A stretch of 64,000 bases of DNA from a virus: IMG/VR virus record IMGVR_UViG_3300025407_001359, one strand, 5' to 3'. Below the pieces are notes generated by a model. It was not told the origin of the DNA and did no database searches. It saw only the letters and a program-made list of their open reading frames with translations. This document shows, one piece after another, positions 32,757 to 46,922 of this stretch. Made by a program: the position numbers and the translations under genes. Positions within the stretch are counted from its first letter, which is position 1, and every line of letters begins with the position of its first letter.

Positions 32757-33063
32757 AGCAGTTGAAAAATTACGTGGCGTTCATACTGTGTTGGAATTGG
32801 AATCATTCGCAGTCAACGGGGAAATGCTACGAGCCTGGTGCATTGTACCCCCAGAAAAAATTGGTCTTGACGGATTGGCATCTTTGCCGGCGTTGAAAGA
32901 TCTACACGCAAAATTGATAGAGGCCTGGAAAGCCAAAGACCTGCGCTTGTGCGAGGACATCATTCCGCATCTAACCGGCAAATTTGGTGGTGAGCTAGAT
33001 TCTTTTTACGAAGAATTAACAAAAAAAATCACAAACATCAAAAATGAATCCGTCAATTCTTAA
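32734..33063 (+). CDS. Hypothetical protein
   Basis: 109-aa ORF in operon. Confidence 0.6.
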   Translation: MQIVWHPEAVEKLRGVHTVLELESFAVNGEMLRAWCIVPPEKIGLDGLASLPALKDLHAKLIEAWKAKDLRLCEDIIPHLTGKFGGELDSFYEELTKKITNIKNESVNS

Positions 33064-34192
33064 TTCTGTTTATGGTTACTACAAGGTCGGCGATCAGTAT
33101 TACATAAACAAAACAGAGGCGCTGTACAACGCCACCAAAAACAAACAGTCAGCCGAGTGGCACTTTCACGAAGATGTGTACGGCAAGATAGACTGGAGTT
33201 CAAGACCGGCTGGTACATTGGACGATCTCTATAGAGAACGAGCACAACAAATACGTGACCGATACGACTACATAATTTTGTTGTTCAGTGGTGGTATGGA
33301 TTCGTGGGCAATGCTGGAAGCTTTCTTGATCAATGGAATACACATCGACGAAATAGTCACACGCTGGCCCAGAGCTGAACGCAAGTTTGTCAAAGTCGGT
33401 ACCAATAGAGATCAAATCAATATGGGCAGTGAATATGAATTTGCTGTACACCCAGTTCTGAAGTACGTAGAAAAACATTGTCCTGATACAAAAATTACAG
33501 TAGACGATTTTAGCGAGTGTTTTCACCAAGAGCTGACCGAAGCTGATTTTATGAAGACCAACGGTTGGCAGTTCTTGGCAAACTTTTTCAAGTACAGTCG
33601 CAGTACAGAATCAGAACTGGAACAAGTACGACATCATCGCTCTATTGGATTGATCAGTGGCAGTGAAAAAATACATTTGATGTCCAAGAACAATAATCTG
33701 TATGCGTTCTTTACTGATCAAAGCAATGGCGGGGACAACAACCCAAACAGAAAAATGGAATTTTTTTACTGGTCGGTTGACGCTCCACTAATACCAGTGC
33801 TACAATCTCATTGTATTAAAGATTTTTTAGTAGAACAACAACGGATCAATCCTGAAAAACTAAAACTAATGATAGACGATTGGCGCACAATCTATCAGCA
33901 AGTATGCTATCCTAGATACAGCATTGACACATTCCAAGTTAAAAAACAATTTGGCTCACGTGTTTGGCAAAGTGATGCGTGGACTTATCAATATAGTCCT
34001 ACCTACTACCACAGCTGGAAGTGGCTTACAGATCAATACTTTGACAACATTGATGATCAGTATATTGCAAGATTAAATGATGTACCTACTGCACCCAAAG
34101 GCTCAAACAATATGATAGTGGGGTTAAATCTGTTCAATAGCCCGTTGTATCTAGTGAGTCAAAACACAAATCTCCCCGAGTTCAAACGATAA
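33044..34192 (+). CDS. PP-loop (adenine nucleotide alpha-hydrolase) ATPase-like enzyme
   Basis: IILLFSGGMDS (SGGxDS). Confidence 0.65.
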   Translation: MNPSILNSVYGYYKVGDQYYINKTEALYNATKNKQSAEWHFHEDVYGKIDWSSRPAGTLDDLYRERAQQIRDRYDYIILLFSGGMDSWAMLEAFLINGIHIDEIVTRWPRAERKFVKVGTNRDQINMGSEYEFAVHPVLKYVEKHCPDTKITVDDFSECFHQELTEADFMKTNGWQFLANFFKYSRSTESELEQVRHHRSIGLISGSEKIHLMSKNNNLYAFFTDQSNGGDNNPNRKMEFFYWSVDAPLIPVLQSHCIKDFLVEQQRINPEKLKLMIDDWRTIYQQVCYPRYSIDTFQVKKQFGSRVWQSDAWTYQYSPTYYHSWKWLTDQYFDNIDDQYIARLNDVPTAPKGSNNMIVGLNLFNSPLYLVSQNTNLPEFKR

Positions 34193-34300: not shown

Positions 34301-34777
34301 ATGCGTTTTATCAAACAAGCTATCACAGCTTTTCTAACCGCAACCGCATTTTCAGCAGTGGCGACCCCTATTAACGACTACAGTTTCAAAAGCCCAAGCC
34401 TAAACGGGTCTGGATACGGTGCCTTCCAATTGGGCTTGGAAAACGAACAATACACACGACAACAGGCAGTGGCTGCATCAATCAAGGCTGCTGCAGATGC
34501 TGCTGCCGCTGCCGCACAAAACACTCCCTTGCAACAATTTTTAACCAACTTAGAGTCACGAATCTACGCACAAATCAGTCAGAACGTGGCCACCAGTATG
34601 TTCAGCACACCGGGACAAGTACAGCCCGGGCAGATAGCTTTTGGTGCTGGACAAATATCTTGGGGACAGGTAATCTTGCCCGGTGGCGGACAAGGAATAC
34701 AGTTGCACGTGTTTGATGGTATGAATACTACAACTATCAACGTTCCGATGGGACAATTTACTCCGGGTGGCAATTGA
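34301..34777 (+). CDS. csgF: Curli assembly protein CsgF-like
   Basis: Signal peptide; YSFKSPSLNG, LQQFLTNLESRIYAQIS, IQLHV..G..TTINVP follow the CsgF pattern; upstream of csgG. Confidence 0.8.
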   Translation: MRFIKQAITAFLTATAFSAVATPINDYSFKSPSLNGSGYGAFQLGLENEQYTRQQAVAASIKAAADAAAAAAQNTPLQQFLTNLESRIYAQISQNVATSMFSTPGQVQPGQIAFGAGQISWGQVILPGGGQGIQLHVFDGMNTTTINVPMGQFTPGGN

Positions 34778-36063
34778 TGAAACGAATCTTAATTTTATCC
34801 GCTCTCATTTTAGCCCTGTCTGGTTGTGCCGTTAGCCAGAAAGTGGGTATCTTGGAAGAAAAACCCAAGTTGATGAAACAGGAAATGATCAAAGAACTTG
34901 ACTCAGTTCCGCCTCCTGCCAAAGGACGCCTAACTGTAGCAGTCTACAACTTTAGCGACAAGACCGGACAGCGTAAAGCAACCCCAGGTGTGGCCAGTTT
35001 CAGTACAGCAGTCACACAAGGTGGTGATGCACTATTGATACGTGCCTTACAAGACGTAGGACACGGTACTTGGTTTGATGTTGTAGAACGTGGCAACATA
35101 GATGCCTTGACCAAGGAACGCTTGATCATTACACAGATGCGTCAGGCCTATGAAGGTGCCAATGCACAGAAACTGATGCCATTACAGTTTGCCGGTATCA
35201 TCATTGAAGGTGGTATCATTGGCTACGATTCAGGCCTAGAGTCCGGCGGTGTGGGCTACAACTTCTTGGGTATTGGGCCTACCACACAGTATTCAAAAGA
35301 TGTAATTACAATTAGCTTACGTGCTGTGTCGGTAAACACCGGCAAGATACTTGCTACCATTGCTGTGACAAAAACAGTTTACTCAACCGCAGACTCAATC
35401 GCCATATTTAAGAGTGTAGATCCAGGTGGAAGCATAAGCGACCTGGTCAAACAGATAGGTGCACCCAACACTGGCAGTCAAAGTGCCATAGCCGGTATAT
35501 TCCAATTTGAATCTGGCATTACCATCAACGAAGCCACAACCATAGCACTCAAAGCCGCTGTGGAAAGTGCTGTGGTAGAATTGATCAAAGAAGGCGAACG
35601 TAAAGGTGTATGGGAATACAGATATCCATTGACACCTGAACGGGCCTGGTACGACTTTACCAAAGACAAACCACAGCCAACATTGACACCCACACCAGTG
35701 CCGGCTGTTGCAACACCAGTTCAACCTGTAGTGCAAGTTGAAAAAAAGAACAGTTTGATAGACTCTACCCGAGTATATACAAACAAATCAAATTTGAACG
35801 GACCCAGTTATGGCCTATACCATACCTATCCCAAAAATACAGTAGTAACAGTAGTGCCAACAGAGTTTAATGATGTTGTAGAAATAACCACACCCGACGG
35901 TAAACGGGGTTACGTTAAATCTACACAAATTAAAGAAGAAGTATTGTCGCCACGACCATCGACTAACCCGGTCACGGAACCTGCAATTCCGTTGGGCCCA
36001 TCAAAGAAAGAAGATGTTCCGGCAGACCAAGCAGCAAAAGAAGGAGTAATACCGGCGAAGTAG
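34777..36063 (+). CDS. csgG: Curli secretion channel CsgG lipoprotein with C-terminal SH3b-like domain
   Basis: Lipobox LSGC; AVYNFSDKTGQRK, STAVTQG, WFDVVERG.IDALTKER.II, IEGGIIGYD, ISLRAVSVNTG. Confidence 0.93.
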   Translation: MKRILILSALILALSGCAVSQKVGILEEKPKLMKQEMIKELDSVPPPAKGRLTVAVYNFSDKTGQRKATPGVASFSTAVTQGGDALLIRALQDVGHGTWFDVVERGNIDALTKERLIITQMRQAYEGANAQKLMPLQFAGIIIEGGIIGYDSGLESGGVGYNFLGIGPTTQYSKDVITISLRAVSVNTGKILATIAVTKTVYSTADSIAIFKSVDPGGSISDLVKQIGAPNTGSQSAIAGIFQFESGITINEATTIALKAAVESAVVELIKEGERKGVWEYRYPLTPERAWYDFTKDKPQPTLTPTPVPAVATPVQPVVQVEKKNSLIDSTRVYTNKSNLNGPSYGLYHTYPKNTVVTVVPTEFNDVVEITTPDGKRGYVKSTQIKEEVLSPRPSTNPVTEPAIPLGPSKKEDVPADQAAKEGVIPAK

Positions 36064-36106
36064 TAGGAGTCGCAGGACAAGGGCCAAGGGCCAAGGAAAG
36101 AACAAA

Positions 36107-37033
36107 ATGAAATATAGACTAGCTAAAATAATAACAGTAGTGCTAGGTCTTGTATGTACAGGTGTTTATGCTGCCGACGACAGTATCTACATCAATCAAT
36201 CAGGTAGCAATTCAACTATTAACATGACCCAGAATGGAGCCAGTAACGTGGTTGAAGGAATTCAAGGTACCGGCACGGGAACAACTACACCCGCAATCAT
36301 TACCGGTAACAACAATACTGTGAATGTGAGCCAAGTTGGTAGTGGCAATACTTTGCAGTTGGGGCTTCAGACAGGCACAGCCAACTCGGGTCAAAATACT
36401 GGGTCGGGATCAGGCAATAATTTTACCTATAATGTGACCGGTGACAATGCCACTGCCATTATTAACAGTAATAACGCAGGTACTACAGGTGCCAGCCAAA
36501 GCAACAATATCACTGTTAATCAAACAGGTAATACTGCCAACTTGAATGTTAACCTACTAGGTTCAAACAATAACTTTACAGCAACAACCTCGGGCGGTGC
36601 AAGTAACTCGGTAGTGGCCACTGTAAAAGGATCTGGTACTAACGATCAGATCTCAATGACTGGTGGTGCCAACAACAGCTTGACTTTGAATCAAGGTGTA
36701 AACACTCAAGTGGTAACAGGTACACAAGTCAACGTACAAAGTGTAGGTGCTAACAACACTTATAATTTGAATCAGGACGGTGGTACCAATGGTAACAATA
36801 TCACTATTGGTGGATACAATGCCACAGGTCTTACTGTGAGTGGTGCCGCAGTTGGTAACGGTAACAGTTACACCGTGACGCAATCGGGTAACTATGACAA
36901 CACCTTAATCCTGGGCGTAACTGGTGGTAGCAACACATTTGGTATTACACAAACAGCCACTGGTGGCAACAACGTGACCAATATACAAACAAATGGTAGC
37001 AACAACTCTTGGACTGTACACCAAACACGTTAA
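36107..37033 (+). CDS. Curlin-repeat protein (CsgA/CsgB-like subunit)
   Basis: Signal peptide; many alternating-hydrophobe repeats with Q-x-G..N (INQSGSNSTINMTQNG, VSQVGSGNTL, VTQSGNYDNTL). Confidence 0.75.
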   Translation: MKYRLAKIITVVLGLVCTGVYAADDSIYINQSGSNSTINMTQNGASNVVEGIQGTGTGTTTPAIITGNNNTVNVSQVGSGNTLQLGLQTGTANSGQNTGSGSGNNFTYNVTGDNATAIINSNNAGTTGASQSNNITVNQTGNTANLNVNLLGSNNNFTATTSGGASNSVVATVKGSGTNDQISMTGGANNSLTLNQGVNTQVVTGTQVNVQSVGANNTYNLNQDGGTNGNNITIGGYNATGLTVSGAAVGNGNSYTVTQSGNYDNTLILGVTGGSNTFGITQTATGGNNVTNIQTNGSNNSWTVHQTR

Positions 37034-37034
37034 T

Positions 37035-37205
37035 ATGGATAGACGTTTTTTAGAGATTATGTATCAACAGTGGCAACAAGGCATGACAGATTATGCCAAC
37101 CGCTGGATAGATTTTGTAGAAATGGCAGCTCGTGTCAATGGAACGACTGCTGATCAAATAATGAAAGAGTTACAAAAATGCAGCTGGTTTATAAAGGGAG
37201 ACTGA
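37035..37205 (+). CDS. Small hypothetical protein (56 aa)
   Basis: ATG 37035 directly after curlin stop. Confidence 0.55.
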   Translation: MDRRFLEIMYQQWQQGMTDYANRWIDFVEMAARVNGTTADQIMKELQKCSWFIKGD

Positions 37206-38335
37206 TATGGACAGTGGTACTATGCGCCGCCTTTGCCAGTATCTCCACGAATTGCGTAGCCGGAATCGGGACCATAACGGAACAGGTGAACACTCCGGCA
37301 CAGATTCAACGGGCAAAATCCACGTTAACTGGAACCAAGGGCACTCCAGTAGAAATGGCCGACGCAATAAACACAACAAAGGGTAAGGTCGGTATAGTAT
37401 TTGCCGATGAAACCAAGGTACAGGTAAATGAAAATTCAAAACTGGTCATTGACGAATTTGTTTACGACCCAAAAAATAAAGATGCTGGCAAGCTGGCTCT
37501 CAACATGGCCAGCGGAACAGTTCGCTACGCCTCGGGGGCGATTGCTCATAACAATCCTAATAAGGTGGCTATCAACACTCCTACTGCTACCATTGCTGTT
37601 CGCGGTACTGATTTTACTGCTACTGTGGACGAACTGGGTGAATCAACTGTAATTTTATTACCATCGTGTCCAAGAAAAGATCTACTACCAGACGAAATAG
37701 AAAGACTATGTAAGACTGGTCGTATTGATGTTATCAATGATGCCGGTACCGTTACACTGGATCAACCATTCCAAGGTACCAAAGTTACAGCTAGAAACAT
37801 AGCCCCCACAAAACCTGCCGTACTACGCTTAAACGAAGATGGTATCAGCAACATTTTGATCTTGGCACCGCCACAAGAAATCAAAAACGCAATCAAACAA
37901 AGAGAAGAAGAAAAACAACAAGCCGTAACAGCCTTGAGTCAAAACTTCTTGCAGGGTGTTGACTTAGGTAGTGTGCTGGCCGCACAGAACGCAACCTACT
38001 TGAGCAATGCATTAGAACGTAACTTTTTGGATCAAGACTTCTTGGCCAATGTGTTGACCTTGTTGAACGATCAGTTGGCTGCAGAGTTTGGAAACCTGTT
38101 GGCACCAAAAACAAACAGTTTGTTGCCTGATTATAAAAAAGAAACTGGTGTGGTAGCCACGGTTGATCCTATCAGTGTTACACTATGTCGTACAGACTCT
38201 GGCAACAACACCAGCTGCGTTACCACACCGCACGTACAGAATTCAACAGTTACACAGACACAAAGTGAAAATGTGGCTATTAAAAATCGTATCAACGCTG
38301 GTGGCAATACTTACATAAACATAAAGCAGAACTGA
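37178..38335 (+). CDS. FecR-domain periplasmic protein
   Basis: Signal/TM; IVFADETKVQVNENSKLVIDEFVYD, GTVRYASG, TPTATIAVRGTDF; exact start uncertain. Confidence 0.85.
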   Translation: MQLVYKGRLIWTVVLCAAFASISTNCVAGIGTITEQVNTPAQIQRAKSTLTGTKGTPVEMADAINTTKGKVGIVFADETKVQVNENSKLVIDEFVYDPKNKDAGKLALNMASGTVRYASGAIAHNNPNKVAINTPTATIAVRGTDFTATVDELGESTVILLPSCPRKDLLPDEIERLCKTGRIDVINDAGTVTLDQPFQGTKVTARNIAPTKPAVLRLNEDGISNILILAPPQEIKNAIKQREEEKQQAVTALSQNFLQGVDLGSVLAAQNATYLSNALERNFLDQDFLANVLTLLNDQLAAEFGNLLAPKTNSLLPDYKKETGVVATVDPISVTLCRTDSGNNTSCVTTPHVQNSTVTQTQSENVAIKNRINAGGNTYINIKQN

Positions 38336-38336
38336 T

Positions 38337-39809
38337 ATGAAATTTGTTGCCTACCTATTTGTTGCTGTTTTACTTGCCGGACTTGGTCAGTGCAATCGAG
38401 CTCACGCTGCCGGGGTAGCTGGCTGGAACTACACTACCTATTATGCTGGTGGCGCCAGTCCTAGTACAAGTAATAGAACTGTAGATACTACAGGTGTAAC
38501 TACGTCAATCAATTATGACTGGGGCGGCGGTTTAGTTTTAGATAGCAGACTGTATGATGGAGTTATCATACACTTTCAAGGCTACTTGCAAGCACCAACT
38601 ACAGGAACTTATTATTTTGGCATTACCAGCGACGACGGCAATCAGTTAACTATCAACAATACTGTAGTGACTGCCTGTTGGTGCGAACAAGGACCTACAT
38701 TTAGATCGGGCAGTATATATCTCACAGCAGGACAAATAGTACCAGCGGATATTTGGTATTATGAAAACGGTGGCGGTGCCATGGTACAATTTTGGTGGTA
38801 TACCAACGGTAGTTGGCAAATAGTACCTACGTCAATGCTGGCTACCAGTGCCAGTTATTGGGGGCCCAGTGTTACAGGGTATGGCGGTGGAACCGTTACA
38901 ACTACATCAACTTCGGGATCTGTGACATCTACCTACAACCAACCTGTGACCATTACCTACTACAGCGATGGCTCACAAACCACTGCCAACAATGGCGCCG
39001 CTACACTGATCAGTACAACTGACACAGGTGGATCTTCAACCATCACTGGCACACAACAACAGATGGTCAACGCAGTGGCCTCAAGAATGCCTGGCCTGGG
39101 CGACAACAGCATTTATATAAATCAAACTGGCACAGGCGACACCATTAATATTACACAAAAAGGTGCCGGAAACCGTATTGACGGAGCAACAAGTACTGCA
39201 AACGGACCAGGCTACACCACGGCCGCGCCCATCACCGGCGGCGGTAATCACATTACTGTACGACAACAATCAAACAACAACCTAATTGATTTGGCCGCGG
39301 TGGGTGGCAACAATACTCTTAACCTAAATCAAGGCACAGATAGTAACGGTAATTCAACTGGCTTGGATACTGGCGGACACTATCAGTTTGACTATGTGAA
39401 TGGCACAGGCAATAACTTGACAGTAGTTCAGGAAAATACTGCCACTGGCGCCGGGCAATTTTCCAGCGTGGCCATAATAGGCAACTTAAACACCGTGGGC
39501 ATTACACAAACCGGCAACGCCAGAAATCAATTGTTTGCCACAGTATCGGGCAACAGCAACAACATAACCACAACACAAACAGGAACCAGTGCTGGCTACG
39601 TCAACATCAATGCTTCAGGCAATGGTAACTCTGCTGTGGTAACACAATCAAACGCCGGTAGTGGCGGATCTAATAACGCATCAATAACTTTAATAAATGC
39701 AGGAGCACCGGCGTCGGTGAACCTGACACAAACAGGTGGGCAAAACTATTCGGTAACACAAACCTGCGCCACCACCTGTGGTACAGTAACCGTACGTCAA
39801 GGAAACTAA
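38337..39809 (+). CDS. Secreted PA14-domain / curlin-repeat fusion protein
   Basis: Signal; GYLQAPTTGTYYFGITSDDG..YYENGGG (PA14); C-terminal curlin-like repeats (INQTGTGDTINITQKGAGN). Confidence 0.8.
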   Translation: MKFVAYLFVAVLLAGLGQCNRAHAAGVAGWNYTTYYAGGASPSTSNRTVDTTGVTTSINYDWGGGLVLDSRLYDGVIIHFQGYLQAPTTGTYYFGITSDDGNQLTINNTVVTACWCEQGPTFRSGSIYLTAGQIVPADIWYYENGGGAMVQFWWYTNGSWQIVPTSMLATSASYWGPSVTGYGGGTVTTTSTSGSVTSTYNQPVTITYYSDGSQTTANNGAATLISTTDTGGSSTITGTQQQMVNAVASRMPGLGDNSIYINQTGTGDTINITQKGAGNRIDGATSTANGPGYTTAAPITGGGNHITVRQQSNNNLIDLAAVGGNNTLNLNQGTDSNGNSTGLDTGGHYQFDYVNGTGNNLTVVQENTATGAGQFSSVAIIGNLNTVGITQTGNARNQLFATVSGNSNNITTTQTGTSAGYVNINASGNGNSAVVTQSNAGSGGSNNASITLINAGAPASVNLTQTGGQNYSVTQTCATTCGTVTVRQGN

Positions 39810-39810
39810 C

Positions 39811-40002
39811 GTGATATCATTTACCGTAAACAAATATCGATACTACGAAGATAATTTAGATGATGTAAGTTTGTATGTGCATGAATGCGGCGGATATTTT
39901 GAAATACAAAGATATGTGGTAGAATTTTATGTGCCAACAGAATATCGAGATTTTATTATGATCAAATATCCATTTTTAGAGGAGGTACCTTATGTTTATT
40001 GA
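39811..40002 (+). CDS. Small hypothetical protein
   Basis: GTG start after AAGGA. Confidence 0.55.
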   Translation: MISFTVNKYRYYEDNLDDVSLYVHECGGYFEIQRYVVEFYVPTEYRDFIMIKYPFLEEVPYVY

Positions 40003-40171
40003 ATTACTGGCTCAAATTGCCGGCGGCTTATTTGGTCTTGCTGTTGCGTATGCAATGCACAGATTTGTTGAAAGACCATACGAACGCAGTACACAAGAAG
40101 CTCGGGTCAAGTACGAAGCCGAAATGGCAGAAATACGTCGTCAAAAAGAACAGTTGCGTAAAGCTAAATAA
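39992..40171 (+). CDS. Small TM + coiled-coil protein (59 aa; not in ORF track)
   Basis: GAGGAGG RBS; MFIELLAQIAGGLFGLAVAYAMHRFVERPYERSTQEARVKYEAEMAEIRRQKEQLRKAK. Confidence 0.65.
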   Translation: MFIELLAQIAGGLFGLAVAYAMHRFVERPYERSTQEARVKYEAEMAEIRRQKEQLRKAK

Positions 40172-40240
40172 GTGTGCGGGCACAAGATAAGGTGTCGTGG
40201 GAATCCGTAATCCACGCTAAGGGACCGAAAGGTCCTTTTT
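40172..40240 (+). ncRNA. Candidate small structured RNA (three hairpins ending in a terminator)
   Basis: TAAATA at 40165; hairpins TGTG/CACA, CGTGG/CCACG, AAGGGACC-GAAA-GGTCCTTT plus T-run. Confidence 0.35.
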
Positions 40241-40523: not shown

Positions 40524-41291
40524 ATGAATCGTACTTATCGCTCAATTTTTATTTCCGATGTACACTTTGGCACCAGAGATTGCAAGGCCGAGGAACTCAA
40601 CAACTTTCTCAAACACAACACCTGCGAAACACTTTATCTAGTGGGCGATATAATTGATGCTTGGAAAATTCAACAAAACAAGTGGCGCTGGCGACAGAGT
40701 CACACCAATGCTGTCAGACGAATCTTGGGCCACGCTAAACGTAACACACGAGTTGTATACGTAGCTGGTAACCACGACGAGTTTCTTCGTCCACTGATAC
40801 CATATGGTATGGGTTTTGGACGAGTAGAAATTGTAAATCAATGCGAACACGTGGGAGCCGATGGCAAACGTTATCTGGTTACTCACGGTGATCTGTTTGA
40901 CGGTATTACCAAATTGGCGCCTTGGTTAGCCTTTTTGGGTGACAAGATGTATGACTTTGTGCTAAACTTGAACTCTAGCTACAACTGGATTCGTCATCGT
41001 CTAGGATTTGGCTACTGGTCCCTGTCAAAATTTCTCAAACACAAAGTAAAAAGTAGTGTAGATTTCATTTTTCAATTTGAACGGAATCTAGCAACATACT
41101 GTAAAAAACGTGGCTTCGATGGTGTAATATGTGGGCATATACATCACGCAGAAATCAAAGACATTGACGGAGTCACATATATGAACGATGGCGATTGGGT
41201 GGAATCAATGACAGCCTTGGTCGAACATCACGACGGGCAATGGGAAATCATAACCTGGACACAAGCTCATGACAGTATTACTTCTAACTAA
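40524..41291 (+). CDS. plcP: PlcP-like metallophosphoesterase (phospholipase C; LpxH-like annotation family)
   Basis: SDVH, GDIID, GNHD, HGD, GHIH plus PlcP-typical LAFLGD..YD, YWSLS, DGDWVES.TALVEH. Confidence 0.8.
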   Translation: MNRTYRSIFISDVHFGTRDCKAEELNNFLKHNTCETLYLVGDIIDAWKIQQNKWRWRQSHTNAVRRILGHAKRNTRVVYVAGNHDEFLRPLIPYGMGFGRVEIVNQCEHVGADGKRYLVTHGDLFDGITKLAPWLAFLGDKMYDFVLNLNSSYNWIRHRLGFGYWSLSKFLKHKVKSSVDFIFQFERNLATYCKKRGFDGVICGHIHHAEIKDIDGVTYMNDGDWVESMTALVEHHDGQWEIITWTQAHDSITSN

Positions 41292-42150
41292 ACAAACAAA
41301 AAAAGCCTACGAACGCCGCCGCCTGGAAGAAAGTTTTGCCGATAAAAAAATCAAAACAACTGTCAAGCATCCAAAAGACTTTGATCTGGTAGTGACTCAC
41401 GAAATAGAACACAGCGTCAAATTGAATGGTCAAGATTTTGAGTGGCCCAAATTTGTAATACTGCGTGGCACCAGTGGCGAAAACAATTTTAACCTGGCCA
41501 TTATGCGAGAATTTGAACAGGCCGGAATTCCAGTTATCAACAGTCCCACAGCAATTGAAAATGCCCGAGACAAATTGCGTACTTGCCAGATTTTGGCCAA
41601 CAACGGTATTCGTATTCCCAAAACTTTGATGTTCAAGTGGCCGGTGGATGAAGAATTGATTGAACGAGAAATAGGCTGGCCCTGTGTGGTTAAGGTAGTG
41701 TCGGGCAGTCAAGGCAATGGCGTATATCTCTGCAAAAAACGCAAACATTTCACAGCCTTGATGAATATGGCAGTTACCTTGGGCAATCGTCAAACTCTTA
41801 TTGTACAAGAATACATGGCTGACCGAGTTGGCGAAGACCTACGTGTGTTGGTAGTTGGCGGACGTGTGATTGGCGCTATGCGCAGAATCAGCAATGATGA
41901 TTTTCGTGCCAACATCAGCCAAGGTGGCCACGGTGAGCCATTCCCTGTGTCAGACGAAATTGATTACATATCTAGAGAAGCTGCCAGACTGTTGGGACTA
42001 GAAGTTGCCGGTATTGATTTGTTGTTTGATGGCGACAGTTTCAGAGTATGCGAAGTAAATAGCAATCCAGGTTTTCGTGGATTTGAACGATACTGCGATG
42101 TCAATGTAGCTGATGCCATCACAGAATATATTAGACTAAAAATTCAATGA
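41269..42150 (+). CDS. rimK: RimK-family ATP-grasp ligase
   Basis: INSP.AI..ARDKL, GSQG.GV, IVQEY, DLRVLVVG, FRANISQGG, AGIDLL, EVNSNPGF. Confidence 0.85.
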   Translation: MTVLLLTKQTKKAYERRRLEESFADKKIKTTVKHPKDFDLVVTHEIEHSVKLNGQDFEWPKFVILRGTSGENNFNLAIMREFEQAGIPVINSPTAIENARDKLRTCQILANNGIRIPKTLMFKWPVDEELIEREIGWPCVVKVVSGSQGNGVYLCKKRKHFTALMNMAVTLGNRQTLIVQEYMADRVGEDLRVLVVGGRVIGAMRRISNDDFRANISQGGHGEPFPVSDEIDYISREAARLLGLEVAGIDLLFDGDSFRVCEVNSNPGFRGFERYCDVNVADAITEYIRLKIQ

Positions 42151-43145
42151 AAACTATATTGGTAATAACCGACAACCTAAAGGATCAAATCAATGGTGTG
42201 GTCACAACTTTCAAAAACCTGGAAGATCACGCTGGCCGTGATGGGTATCGTGTTGTTTATTGTGATCCCGGGCAGTTCCCTAATTTTGCTTGCCCTGGCT
42301 ATCCTGAAGTTCGTCTCTGTTGGCCGCACGGCATCAGTAAAAAAATTAAAGCGATATGTCCGGATTTTATACACATCGCTACAGAAGGGCCTGTAGGCCT
42401 ATTTGCAAGGTGGTGGTGTGAGCGCAATCATATTCCTTATAATACTAGTTATCATACTGATTTCCCCGAGTTCTTAAAGACCATGTACCGTGTGCCCAAG
42501 AGCATAACTTATTGGTACCTGCGTTGGTTTCACAAGAACAGTCATCGTGTGCTGGTTACTACTCGCACTATTCAACAGGATTTGGCACAGCACGGATTTG
42601 AACGTATGGTCGTATGGACACGCGGAGTCCGCAGAGACATTGAGCCTAGCCGGGAGCGTTGTGAACGTACACGCCCGTTGTTGCTCAATGTGGGCCGTGT
42701 CAGTAGCGAAAAAGGTCTAGCCAGCCTGGTGGAGTTGGACAGTGACCAGTACAACCTGGTCATTGTGGGTGATGGACCATATATGAGTCGTGCTAGACAG
42801 TTGTTGCCCGAAGCTCATTTTGTTGGCTACAAGTCTGGACAAGAATTAGTGGACTATTATCATCAAGCAGACGTTTTTGTATTCCCTAGCCAAGCAGATA
42901 CTTTTGGCCTGGTTATTATTGAAGCAATGGCACAAGGTTGTCCAGTGGCGGCTTTTCCTGTACAAGGTCCTGTAGACATTATCGAACAGGGTGTAAATGG
43001 TTATATGTCGTGGGACCTGGAAGAGGCTGTACGCGAATGCTTGACCCTAGATCGAAACGTGGTCAAACAGTCTAGTCAACAGTGGACTTGGGAAGAATGT
43101 TGGCGTATATTCCGTGAAAATCTAGTAGAAGCGGATAAATATTAA
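42147..43145 (+). CDS. agt: GT4 glycosyltransferase, Agt-like glycolipid synthase
   Basis: QINGVVTT, CPGYPEVRL, HIATEGPVG, TSYHTDFPE, VGRVSSEK, FPSQADTFGLVIIEAMAQG. Confidence 0.75.
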   Translation: MKTILVITDNLKDQINGVVTTFKNLEDHAGRDGYRVVYCDPGQFPNFACPGYPEVRLCWPHGISKKIKAICPDFIHIATEGPVGLFARWWCERNHIPYNTSYHTDFPEFLKTMYRVPKSITYWYLRWFHKNSHRVLVTTRTIQQDLAQHGFERMVVWTRGVRRDIEPSRERCERTRPLLLNVGRVSSEKGLASLVELDSDQYNLVIVGDGPYMSRARQLLPEAHFVGYKSGQELVDYYHQADVFVFPSQADTFGLVIIEAMAQGCPVAAFPVQGPVDIIEQGVNGYMSWDLEEAVRECLTLDRNVVKQSSQQWTWEECWRIFRENLVEADKY

Positions 43146-43165: not shown

Positions 43166-44896
43166 ATGGCAATAACTATTGGTGGCGGCATAACAATTGG
43201 TAGCGGCATCAGCCTAGGGGGCGGTACAATTTCTTCTTCCCCTACACCAACCTATAGCGTAACACCCGGTGCTGGTAGCATCAACGAAGGCAGCGGTCTA
43301 ACATTCACAGTATCTGGTACCAACATCACAGATGGCACATACTACTGGGCTATCAATAACGTAACCACCAGTACCGCAGACTTTGGAACTAACTCTGGTT
43401 TGTTTACTATTACTGGCAACTCAGGTTCATTTACAGTAACACCCACAGCTGACAACTTGACAGAAGGAGCAGAAACCTTTACTGTATCTGTTCTCACAGG
43501 TAGTACTTCTGGTACAGTAGTCGCTACCAGTACTTCTGTCACAGTCAATGATACAAGCACAACACCTGCTCCAAGCTATACTGCAACTCCTACTGCAAAC
43601 AATGTCAACGAAGGCAGTAGCTTAACCATTAATGTCACAGGATCAAATATCACAGATGGCACATACTACTGGACCATTAATAACGGCACAACAAGTACTG
43701 CTGACTTTGGTACCAATAGTGGAAGTTTCTCCATTACAAGTAACTCAGGATCATTTAGTGTAACACCCACAGCTGACAACTTGACAGAAGGAGCAGAAAC
43801 CTTTACAGTACAAATCCGTACTGGTAGTACTAGTGGTACAGTAGTAGCCACAACATCAACCATCACCGTCAACGATACAAGCACAACTCCTGGCCGCGGT
43901 GGAAATCGAGTAGTATTCTTTGCGTACAGCAGTGCCCCAGCATCGTTTGGAGCCTATTCTGTTGATCCATACACTAGCATAGTGTCAAGTACCACTGTAC
44001 CACAGTCAACAATAACTGCTGGATATTGTGCATCTTCAGGCAACGTGTTAATGGTGGCGGACGGGTACGGACAAGGTGGCACAACCAACACCGCTGGAAA
44101 TGCATTGACTACCAGTGACGGTATTACCTGGAACCAGGTCACCAGATTGCCACAATTTAGTCCCAACCCTGCTAACATTCGTTGGAGCGGTCTTGCATAC
44201 GGTAACGGAACCTGGGTAGCAGTTGCAGGCGGTCCTAATGCACAATCTACACAAGTAGCCTACAGTACCAATAATGGAAGCACGTGGACCAGTATTAACC
44301 CGTTGCCTAGCAACTACTACGTCGGCGGTGGATTTGGTAATAATATTTTTGTGGCTCTTGCTCCGTTTGGTTCCAATGGATACAGCAGTACAGATGGAAT
44401 AACTTGGACACAAGGCCCAGTAAGACCGACCAATTTTTCAACAACACCGGTATATGTACCATCATTGAACAAGTGGTATGCAATTGATCACACGCCGAGC
44501 ACAAGTGGAAACTTGATGGTAGCAACTTCAACCAATAATATGTCATCATGGACCAGCAATACCTACTCAACTCCTGGTATTCTCTACTACGATAACGTAC
44601 TATGGGCTTACGGAAACGGAGTGTTTGTGGTACTAAATACTCTTCAGACTTTCAGTTACACCAGCACCGACGGTGTAAACTGGACACAACATTCTGGCGT
44701 ATTTTCGGGTCAATTCTATTGGAATAAACTGGTATGGACCGGAACAGAATTTATTGCAGCCAGTACCACCATAAATCCATATGTTTCGTCTTATTGGTAC
44801 AGTCCCGACGGAGCCACATGGACACAAATCACATCAGTTCCAGGAGATCCAACTGGCACACAAGGACTTCTATTAGATGGCCTGTTGACCTCATAA
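43166..44896 (+). CDS. Tail/adhesin-like protein: two Calx-beta/Ig-like repeats plus Asp-box beta-propeller
   Basis: Two 108-aa repeats; SxDGxTW boxes (TSDGITW, STDGITW, STDGVNW, SPDGATW); late boxes at 43136 and 43150. Confidence 0.7.
   Translation: MAITIGGGITIGSGISLGGGTISSSPTPTYSVTPGAGSINEGSGLTFTVSGTNITDGTYYWAINNVTTSTADFGTNSGLFTITGNSGSFTVTPTADNLTEGAETFTVSVLTGSTSGTVVATSTSVTVNDTSTTPAPSYTATPTANNVNEGSSLTINVTGSNITDGTYYWTINNGTTSTADFGTNSGSFSITSNSGSFSVTPTADNLTEGAETFTVQIRTGSTSGTVVATTSTITVNDTSTTPGRGGNRVVFFAYSSAPASFGAYSVDPYTSIVSSTTVPQSTITAGYCASSGNVLMVADGYGQGGTTNTAGNALTTSDGITWNQVTRLPQFSPNPANIRWSGLAYGNGTWVAVAGGPNAQSTQVAYSTNNGSTWTSINPLPSNYYVGGGFGNNIFVALAPFGSNGYSSTDGITWTQGPVRPTNFSTTPVYVPSLNKWYAIDHTPSTSGNLMVATSTNNMSSWTSNTYSTPGILYYDNVLWAYGNGVFVVLNTLQTFSYTSTDGVNWTQHSGVFSGQFYWNKLVWTGTEFIAASTTINPYVSSYWYSPDGATWTQITSVPGDPTGTQGLLLDGLLTS
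43253..43891 (+). repeat. Intragenic tandem duplication, 324-nt period
   Basis: ACCCACAGCTGACAACTTGACAGAAGGAGCAGAAACCTTTAC identical at 43441 and 43765. Confidence 0.9.
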
Positions 44897-44906
44897 TAAA
44901 TACTTG

Positions 44907-46922
44907 ATGCTCAAAAAAATACTTGTCAGTCCCTGGACTGCTCTACTAACTCTAGCTCTAGTTGTTGCTGTACGTGCAGCTGACCCTACATTTGTTGAAA
45001 GCGTAAGACTACGTTACTTTGATACTTTGGTAACAAGTCGGCCAGCTGAAACCATTGGTGTGGACGTGGTAAATATTGATGAAAAAGCCCTGGAACGATA
45101 CGGGCAATTTCCTTTTTCAAGAGACATATATGGAAAAATTATTAGTGATTTGTACCGTCGCAATGCGGGCCTTGTTGTATTTAATATTCTCACTCCTGAT
45201 CGTGACCGCCTTGGTCGAGATGCGGATTATATAGCCGCACTTAAACAATTCCCAACAGTACTACCCAGCATAGGTAGTACACAAACTCGTAACACTCCTA
45301 GAGCTCCAGGATCTGTAGTTATTGGCCCGTACGGCTTGGATACCTTTGTAACTTATCCTGGACTGATTGCCAATATACCTGCGGTGGAATCAGCGGCCGC
45401 TGGTGTTGGCGTTACCAATACACTCCCTGAAGTGGATGGTGTTGTACGTCGTATGCCCTTGGTAGTTGCTTACAATGGCAAACTGTATCCAAGTTTAGCA
45501 ATGGAGACCTTACGTGTGGCCGGTGCTGACTCCACAGTACAGATCAAAGTAAATGAAAATGGCGTTGAGAAAATGCGTATTCCCAAGTTTGGTCCTGTGA
45601 CCACAGACAGCTTGAGTCGCATCTGGATTGACTGGAGTCTAGTTCCAGAGCATTACAGTTTAACAGACTTGCCTCAGGATTTTGAAGGCAACATAGTCAT
45701 TGTGGGTGTGAGTGCCCAAGGTCTTGCTAATCCTGTTGCTACTAGTCGTGGTGAAATGTTGCCACAAGATTTACAAGCAAGTGTACTGGGTACAGTGATT
45801 GCCAATCGAGACAGACCGGCTATTACCAGACCTGACTGGGCCGACGGCGGCGAACTTTTAGCCTTGGTAGTATTGGGCATAGCGTTACTTTTTTTAACAA
45901 GGTGGGTATATGTTGGACTCGTTACTGGTGTTGTCACTATTGGTGTTTTGCTTCCTTTATCTCAGTATTTTTACACGAATTATCTTTGGCTTACTGACGT
46001 TACTGCCCTTATTGGCGGTCTTGTTGTTGTTCTCCTTCATGCTTACGGTGTTAAGTTTGTAAGCGAATTCCTACAGAAACAACAAATCAAAAAGCAATTT
46101 GGTAGTTATGTTAATCCTACCATAGTAGAACGATTACAAAAGGATCCATCACTGATTAAATTGGGCGGTGAACGCAAAGAGCTTTCAATTGTCATGACTG
46201 ACCTGCGTGGCTTTACTACACTAGGCGAAAGTTTTGGCGATGACGTGGAAGGCCTAACACAGATCATGAATGACTATATGACAGCCTTGAGTGTACCAGT
46301 ATTAAAGAACAATGGTACACTGATCAAGTTTATCGGTGATGCCAGCTTGCACGTACACGGCGCCCCGTTAGATGACGTCAACCACGCACATACCGCGGTA
46401 CTCACAGCATTGGACATGATTCGAGCTATCGAAGAATTTAACGTGGAGTTGGTGGCCAAAGGACGCCCACCGGTGGGTATGGGTGCTGGAGTCAACACCG
46501 GTGAGACCTTGATTGGTAACATTGGTGCCAAAACCAAATTTGGTTATGACGTGTTGGGCGACTCAGTCAGTACTGCTGCGCGACTAGAAGGACAGACCAA
46601 AGCATATGGAGTATTATTGATCATTGGCCCACGCACCGCAGAACTGGTACGCAATGAAATACCTGTAATGGAACTTGATTGCATAGCAGTCAAAGGCAAA
46701 ACAATTGGATTAAATATATATACTCCGGAACAGAGTACTAAAGAGCACGAAGATTTCTTAAAATTGTATTACGCCGGCGAATGGAAAAAAGCATTAGCAT
46801 TGATACCAGGGTGTGTAAAAGCCAACCCTAGAATGGAAAAGTACTATGATGCAATGGCCGCACGATTGGAAGAAGGTTGTCCCGCCAGCTGGGACGGAGT
46901 ATATCACGCTACTAGTAAATAG
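44907..46922 (+). CDS. CHASE2-domain class III adenylate/guanylate cyclase
   Basis: N-terminal TM, CHASE2 (IDEKAL..YGQFPF, DGVVRRMPL), 3 TM, TDLRGFT, KFIGDA, GVNTG, LGDSV..AARLE; late box at 44897. Confidence 0.92.
   Translation: MLKKILVSPWTALLTLALVVAVRAADPTFVESVRLRYFDTLVTSRPAETIGVDVVNIDEKALERYGQFPFSRDIYGKIISDLYRRNAGLVVFNILTPDRDRLGRDADYIAALKQFPTVLPSIGSTQTRNTPRAPGSVVIGPYGLDTFVTYPGLIANIPAVESAAAGVGVTNTLPEVDGVVRRMPLVVAYNGKLYPSLAMETLRVAGADSTVQIKVNENGVEKMRIPKFGPVTTDSLSRIWIDWSLVPEHYSLTDLPQDFEGNIVIVGVSAQGLANPVATSRGEMLPQDLQASVLGTVIANRDRPAITRPDWADGGELLALVVLGIALLFLTRWVYVGLVTGVVTIGVLLPLSQYFYTNYLWLTDVTALIGGLVVVLLHAYGVKFVSEFLQKQQIKKQFGSYVNPTIVERLQKDPSLIKLGGERKELSIVMTDLRGFTTLGESFGDDVEGLTQIMNDYMTALSVPVLKNNGTLIKFIGDASLHVHGAPLDDVNHAHTAVLTALDMIRAIEEFNVELVAKGRPPVGMGAGVNTGETLIGNIGAKTKFGYDVLGDSVSTAARLEGQTKAYGVLLIIGPRTAELVRNEIPVMELDCIAVKGKTIGLNIYTPEQSTKEHEDFLKLYYAGEWKKALALIPGCVKANPRMEKYYDAMAARLEEGCPASWDGVYHATSK

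Follow-up and report, generated by a model that had tools for sequence, protein, structure and literature searches.

An intact viral curli module with two curlin-fold repeat proteins and a FecR-CHASE2 pair in a large uncultured phage

We analysed a window of 64,000 nucleotides (nt), i.e., the whole stretch of DNA presented here, which corresponds to bases 28729-92728 of the 157,933-bp IMG/VR virus record IMGVR_UViG_3300025407_001359 (CheckV completeness of 43%). Positions 34301-39809 of this window carry five open reading frames (ORFs), all on the + strand and separated by gaps of -4, 43, 144 and 1 nt. The initial annotation had described them as a CsgF-like protein, a CsgG with a lipobox, a curlin-repeat protein, a FecR-domain protein and a second curlin-repeat protein, and our analysis confirmed these coordinates and identities. 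A hydrophobic signal-like segment is present at the N-terminus of all five proteins. The locus is an intact copy of the viral curli module published for phages of SAR11 and OM43, and the module itself is not new. What our analysis adds is support from the predicted fold for both curlin-type subunits (hereafter R1 and R2), the modular head of R2, the pairing of FecR with CHASE2 in bacteria, and variants specific to this lineage, namely the tail of CsgG, the displacement of the cyclase and the replacement of an Asn by a Ser in its catalytic domain. Past R2, the module further includes two short conserved ORFs and a cyclase with a CHASE2 domain. Its genes are, with lengths in amino acids (aa):

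34301-34777, + strand: CsgF-like protein, 158 aa (Pfam PF10614, phrog_35372)
34774-36063, + strand: CsgG lipoprotein channel, 429 aa (Pfam PF03783; the start is possibly the ATG at 34777)
36107-37033, + strand: R1, curlin-type repeat protein, 308 aa (Curlin_rpt when summed; fold match to CsgA)
37178-38335, + strand: FecR-domain protein, 385 aa (Pfam PF04773, phrog_37870)
38337-39809, + strand: R2, PA14 head with curlin repeat tail, 490 aa (PA14 PF07691; Curlin_rpt in the tail)
39811-40002, + strand: small ORF, 63 aa (starts 1 nt past R2; position kept in close relatives)
39992-40171, + strand: small membrane protein, 59 aa (one transmembrane helix and a charged helix; kept after R2)
44904-46922, + strand: CHASE2 class III cyclase, 672 aa (Pfam CHASE2 and Guanylate_cyc)

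Searches with the profiles of CsgG, CsgF and Curlin_rpt all gave scores above the cut-offs, for Curlin_rpt in the tail of R2 and, when summed, in R1. The CsgF-like protein scored 39.8 bits with PF10614 (cut-off 25.8, E 6e-10) and matched phrog_35372 (E 6e-35). It keeps the motif of the mature N-terminus, F-x-F-x-x-P-x-x-x-G ... L ... Q, and its residues F29, P32, G36, L44 and Q50 are invariant in the alignment with the CsgF of Escherichia coli and of the phages Melnitz and HTVC008M. CsgG scored 142 bits with PF03783 (cut-off 20.8, E 2e-41), has the lipobox LSGC, and shares 39% identity with E. coli CsgG in its core. It carries an insertion of 21 aa around residues 225-245 and a Pro-rich C-terminal extension of 140 aa (residues 286-429, window 35629-36063) that among the relatives is confined to the closest ones from IMG/VR, being absent from the CsgG of E. 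coli, Melnitz and HTVC008M. This extension could be a periplasmic tail binding peptidoglycan. We discarded its identification as an SH3 domain, since the score with SH3_2 (E 0.032) stays under the cut-off. The reported lack of a recognisable CsgE was borne out: PF10627 had no match at E ≤ 1 across the 158-kb record, in a search that detected the E. coli positive control. The gene csgE does not occur in Alphaproteobacteria, and systems without CsgE are normal outside Gammaproteobacteria (Dueholm et al., PMC3521004), where CsgE does not define the system.

Units of 11-12 residues with the pattern N-x-h-x-h-x-Q-x-G-x-x-N make up R1, a protein rich in N, G, T and Q, and the C-terminal half of R2. 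In R1 a signal peptide precedes about 22 strand-turn units, i.e., about 11 rungs, and the autocorrelation of the repeats peaks at lags 23 and 11. When analysed alone, the tail of R2 (residues 246-490) scored 23.8 bits with Curlin_rpt (PF07012, cut-off 20.7) over five stretches. R1 also passed this cut-off, with 21.9 bits summed over the in-frame stretches of a six-frame search; its two halves taken separately scored 17.5 and 15.9 bits. Most of the best 120 of the 207 homologues of R1 match PF07012, and some of them are named 'Curlin associated [uncultured Caudovirales phage]'. The family profile of R1 aligned with E. coli CsgA at E 2e-5 (hhalign); that of R2 gave a weak match (probability 3%, E 0.014). 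The search of R1 against the PDB sequences with phmmer returned only a chance match to a galectin. The repeat domains of R1 and R2 matched each other with a probability of 99.3% (hhalign, E 8e-21). They are, as judged from their sequences, clear paralogues, mirroring CsgA and CsgB.

The structural models point to the same family. The AlphaFold2 model of R1 is all-beta with regular short strands (predicted local distance difference test, pLDDT, of 80.5; predicted template modelling score, pTM, of 0.80), and that of R2 shows similarly regular short strands (pLDDT 81.4). In an exhaustive comparison with VIA-align, the best structural match of R1 was the solved CsgA of Pontibacter korlensis (8c50_A, Z 24.0, 237 residues, 25% identity), followed by generic beta-helices with Z ≤ 16.9. 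The same CsgA was the best match of residues 252-490 of R2 (Z 20.5, next solenoid 15.5). This protein (8C50; Sleutel et al. 2023, PMC10192328) is a long multi-repeat curlin solenoid like R1 and R2, to which it aligns over 205-237 residues at 22-25% identity; it differs from them in coming from Bacteroidota and, relative to R2, in having no head domain. The presence of curlin repeats in two secreted proteins, as proposed from the sequence alone, is therefore backed by the Curlin_rpt scores, by the profile alignments and by the fold match to CsgA, and is more than a chance resemblance. R1 and R2 are credible substrates of CsgG.

R2 consists of a signal peptide, a PA14 head (around residues 30-170), a beta-hairpin linker, the solenoid (around residues 252-490) and two conserved terminal Cys. 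The head scored 49.8 bits with PF07691 (cut-off 24, E 4e-13) and matched 6qdi with phmmer (1.5e-17). Its model matched sugar-binding PA14 domains both with Foldseek (3e-10 to 2e-8) and with VIA-align (Z 21.4, root-mean-square deviation, rmsd, of 1.7). It most resembles the sugar-binding modules of adhesins, and would itself presumably bind sugars. Many relatives of R2 with 730-760 aa (e.g., P0137, P0138, P0140, P0144, P0147 and P0184) keep the curlin tail (59% query cover, 56-82% identity), and their N-terminal parts match no Pfam family. Since these relatives keep the tail and differ N-terminally, R2 appears to be a curlin stalk on which the head can be swapped; both this phage and HTVC008M carry PA14 there.

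The protein encoded between R1 and R2 has a FecR domain (PF04773, 43.3 bits, E 5e-11) and matches phrog_37870 (E 5e-108). Its conserved core, IDEFVYDPK...GTVRYASG...TPTA.I.VRGTDF, is followed by a C-terminal region of 170 aa that lies outside known families. Among the matches listed, the ESM Atlas clusters nearest to the phage FecR proteins were 100% viral, suggesting that these proteins form a virus-specific subfamily. We considered the C-terminus of this protein (...NRINAGGNTYINIKQN) as a curlin-like nucleating or anchoring unit and dropped the idea, as its alignment with the R1 family (hhalign) reached a probability of 1% and an E of 0.05 over 15 columns.

With the CHASE2 cyclase, the conserved members of the module number six. 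It matches CHASE2 (PF05226, E 3e-37) and Guanylate_cyc (E 2e-17) and has an N-terminal transmembrane segment, a periplasmic CHASE2 domain, a hydrophobic block around residues 312-388 and a cytoplasmic cyclase domain. Its orthologues are found directly 3' of the cassette in Melnitz and HTVC008M, and beside it in nearly all of 53 IMG/VR phage loci that we collected by searching with the FecR protein; here the gene is 5 kb downstream, behind inserted genes. Class III cyclases use two metal-binding Asp, a Lys and an Asp that specify the substrate, and an Asn and an Arg that stabilise the transition state. The phage enzyme has D433, D479, K475, D553 and R560, with Ser at the position of the Asn, which leaves the catalytic set incomplete: the sequence reads GDSVSTAARLE (residues 553-562, window 46560-46590) where other relatives have GDxVNLA(S/A)RLE. 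The same Ser occurs in eight of the 25 aligned relatives (L004, L010, L012, L024, L027, L042, L059 and L060), and these Ser-variant cyclases also show a DK-to-IK change beside the substrate-specifying Lys. They constitute a conserved variant clade, whose activity or chemistry may differ.

Two kinds of loci emerged when 185,579 species genomes were scanned using the FecR alignment. Eight (L057-L064) encode FecR and cyclase genes, most of them with the remaining phage-type module, and are located in bins of metagenome-assembled genomes (MAGs). The labels of these MAGs are Pelagibacter, Flavobacteriaceae, Luteolibacter, Rhodobacteraceae, Pirellulales and Caulobacteraceae. The other 71 loci (L065-L135) are bacterial and match the FecR domain only; none of them has CsgG or CsgF. 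A CHASE2 gene lies within 3.3 kb in 34 of the 71, and is adjacent and on the same strand in 11 of these. Six single-cell genomes of Pelagibacteraceae (L105, L107, L110, L120, L124 and L127) encode a FecR-domain protein of 191 aa about 2.3 kb from a CHASE2 gene. SAR11, to which the hosts of the published curli phages belong, therefore has its own FecR/CHASE2 pair, without curli genes. In Burkholderia, an operon encoding a LysM-FecR protein and a CHASE2 histidine kinase controls biofilm formation ('BiofilmReg', PMC5192318). This system likewise combines a secreted FecR-domain protein with a membrane protein carrying a periplasmic CHASE2, encoded side by side. The Burkholderia pair has a histidine kinase output and a LysM domain on FecR, whereas the phage pair has a class III cyclase, a phage-specific FecR C-terminus and a FecR gene placed between the curlin genes. 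FecR and CHASE2 thus represent a periplasmic sensing pair of bacteria, whose genes phages have interspersed among those for curli. Given the pairing in the bacterial loci and the Burkholderia operon, there is no need to read FecR as an iron regulator, and it is better seen as the partner of a CHASE2 sensor.

HTVC008M, Melnitz and most of the 53 IMG/VR loci share the order CsgF-CsgG-R1-FecR-R2-cyclase, across an amino-acid divergence of 36-90%. The operon was described in pelagimyophages by Zaragoza-Solas et al. 2020, who proposed 'sibling capture' (PMC7029224). Buchholz et al. 2022 held the subunits to be lacking and proposed a lysis pore (PMC9004378). A study in mSystems in 2022 then reported CsgF, CsgG, CsgA/B, FecR, a second CsgA/B and an adenylate cyclase in pelagiphages of both myovirus and podovirus type, found this viral type VIII secretion system (T8SS) module at each of the 65 GOV2.0 stations and its transcripts in metatranscriptomes from the ocean, and discussed roles in aggregation, superinfection defence and import (PMC9599517). 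The GenBank records of HTVC008M and Melnitz have curlin-repeat proteins annotated in the corresponding positions, which Pfam confirms, and a 'hypothetical' protein of 441 aa in HTVC008M consists of PA14 and Curlin_rpt according to Pfam. The initial annotation had regarded these two phages as devoid of obvious subunits, and the substrates beside the channel as special to this locus. This view does not hold, since both records and the published module include curlin subunits.

The closest known counterpart is hence the pelagiphage T8SS (HTVC008M, KC465899; Melnitz, MZ577097; HTVC023P-type podoviruses), which shares the gene set and order and also has no CsgE. FecR, CsgG and the cyclase are 36-42% identical to their pelagiphage counterparts; for CsgF the identity is 31-34%. 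The phage studied here differs from the pelagiphages by its GC content (about 43%), its larger size, the 5 kb separating the cyclase from the cassette, the 140-aa extension of CsgG, the longer R1 (308 aa against 228-239 aa) and the Ser-for-Asn cyclase. The podovirus form has a histidine kinase, which is missing here. With csgBAC/csgDEFG of E. coli the module shares the CsgG lipoprotein, the N-terminal peptide of CsgF and two paralogous subunits with Q/N/G-rich strand-turn-strand repeats. Unlike the E. coli system, it has no CsgE, CsgC or CsgD, its subunits have about 10-11 rungs instead of five and no N22-like leader, one of them bears a PA14 head, the constriction Tyr and Asn of the channel are replaced, and FecR and the CHASE2 cyclase are interleaved among the curli genes.

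We consider it probable that the CsgG/CsgF channel secretes R1 into fibres decorated by the lectin-headed R2, with FecR and CHASE2 in sensing and signalling. All products of the module would be exported during infection by the Sec and Lol pathways of the host. The CsgG lipoprotein would form the outer-membrane channel, capped by CsgF through its conserved N-terminal peptide. R1 would cross this channel unfolded and polymerise outside the cell as a curlin-type beta-solenoid fibre, which R2 would join through the shared solenoid, displaying its sugar-binding head. The infected cell would thereby gain sticky, glycan-binding fibres. The FecR protein and the CHASE2 cyclase would act as a separate bacterial-type sensor pair, presumably in contact with each other and probably coupling the state of the envelope or of the fibres to a cyclic-nucleotide output. 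A surface amyloid that would benefit the phage by aggregation or masking is plausible, and has already been proposed in print. We consider a role in the virion unlikely, given that Sec or lipoprotein signals are carried by all products.

Several observations weigh against this proposal. The constriction triad of CsgG is conserved only in part: T70, S75 and F76 align with Y51, N55 and F56 of E. coli CsgG (constriction-ring numbering of Goyal et al. 2014), and the Phe alone is kept. Whole-protein searches with hmmscan found no Curlin_rpt in R2, nor in R1 even at E 10, and it is the miss in R1 that counts here. The model of R1 retrieved nothing from the PDB with Foldseek at E ≤ 1e-3, and the models of R1 and R2 deviate from 8c50 by an rmsd of 8.4-8.6 Å, which may reflect a different curvature or twist of the solenoid. 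The enzymatic output of the cyclase is not to be assumed, because Ser replaces the transition-state Asn. Finally, cells infected by Melnitz did not clump (Buchholz et al., PMC9004378), and fibres are without experimental evidence for any phage module.

Some of these points would also fit other roles for the channel. The absence of a CsgE gate, the altered constriction loop and the small transmembrane protein encoded after R2 would suit a gated outer-membrane pore formed by CsgG, with or without CsgF, and serving the timing of lysis by membrane depolarisation or the uptake of larger solutes, as proposed for Melnitz and the pelagimyophages (PMC9004378, PMC7029224). On this view, the repeat proteins would have an accessory function or form no fibres. 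We find this quite unlikely: it fails to explain why two curlin-fold paralogues with signal peptides are kept beside the pore across highly divergent phages, a pore would not need CsgF, and an outer-membrane pore cannot depolarise the inner membrane. A system like HfaA/HfaB/HfaD of Caulobacter, in which a CsgG-like translocon exports curlin-like, amyloid-like proteins acting with surface polysaccharide (PMC6707917), is also unlikely, if less so. The exported products would in this case be short, amyloid-like oligomers retained at the outer membrane, where their PA14 head would hold or bind polysaccharide and so reshape the capsule or glycan layer, e.g., to block superinfection. The combination of CsgG with a curlin-like polysaccharide anchor in HfaABD, the matches of the Pfam CsgG model in Caulobacter, the lectin-type head of R2, and the glycosyltransferase and other envelope genes of the locus are in line with it. 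Yet the curli-specific CsgF is present here and has no counterpart in Hfa, whose proteins are polar anchors linked to the phage module through the CsgG family, and R1 has about 11 rungs and a fibre-forming CsgA as its best match.

All these readings take the carrier to be a phage, as the initial annotation did. If the contig were bacterial, or a prophage-free chromosomal island, the cassette would be an ordinary bacterial curli operon. The eight related loci in bins labelled as bacterial MAGs could be taken in this sense, as could the failure to find the Gp23 capsid and T4 portal (Pfam) in the 158-kb record, which is uninformative because the controls of these searches were equally silent. However, the source is a virus record with nearly all genes on one strand, and its PHROG matches are to phage families (tail-spike, tail-fibre-like, phage-type ribonucleotide reductase, ligase, GroEL and protease). 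The closest annotated relatives are cultured myophages, and homologues occur on 369-kb contigs of 'uncultured Caudovirales phage'. At least three of the MAG loci (L059-L061) have further genes in common with this phage outside the module and are therefore probably misbinned phage contigs. In the 71 bacterial FecR loci, the remainder of the module, including CsgG and CsgF, is missing. We thus regard a bacterial origin as highly improbable; the small probability left by it, by our proposal and by the two other roles of the channel goes to explanations different from all of these. The locus had no blastn match in the phage collection, and its relatives were found by protein-level searches only. 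The carrier is a large uncultured phage, and since the record is estimated to be 43% of the complete genome, a much larger one than the SAR11 curli phages.

Curli systems of phages occur widely in ocean viromes, equipping hosts with a surface structure that the hosts themselves cannot build. The window shows the module in a much larger and compositionally different phage, and leaves the published picture unchanged. A more speculative reading, to which we give little credence, is that the whole module works as a single trans-envelope sensing device instead of producing fibres beside an unrelated regulator; the lectin-headed fibres would report glycan contact or the state of secretion to FecR, and the CHASE2 cyclase would tune the infection by its cyclic-nucleotide output. 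If so, the glycan contacts would be with neighbouring cells, particles or grazers, and the position of FecR between the curlin genes in nearly all phages, together with the virus-only FecR subfamily, would reflect a physical link.

The two small ORFs that follow R2 are conserved in place. The 63-aa ORF has no match in Pfam, and tblastn finds it at 57-84% identity directly 3' of R2 in eight loci (L004-L006, L012, L014-L016 and L021); the 59-aa ORF is found at the same position at 52-80% identity in six (L004-L006, L010, L016 and L021). A terminator-like hairpin lies 3' of the latter (40219-40238), in a sequence where such sites occur overall at the rate of shuffled (chance) sequence. The operon had been called 'late', a designation that found no support: the T4 late promoter TATAAATA has five occurrences in the window (3.0 expected), none of them near the operon, and sigma-70-like sites are as frequent in the window as in shuffled sequence.

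The genes inserted between R2 and the cyclase encode a metallophosphoesterase, a RimK-like ATP-grasp ligase and a GT4 glycosyltransferase (40524-43145), the RimK-like gene being the middle one, and a 576-aa Ig-like protein. The latter (43166-44896), immediately 5' of the cyclase, has a Gly-rich N-terminus and weak matches to Ig_3 and Calx-beta, and it has no counterpart across 55 related phage loci. Just 5' of csgF, a protein of 382 aa (33044-34192) has the SGGxDS motif of PP-loop proteins and matches neither Pfam nor PHROG; L006 and L008 each have a relative in this place, at 43-44% identity. Just past the cyclase, on the - strand, lies the gene of a fatty-acid desaturase (PF00487, 47026-47745), itself a further membrane-lipid gene of this neighbourhood.

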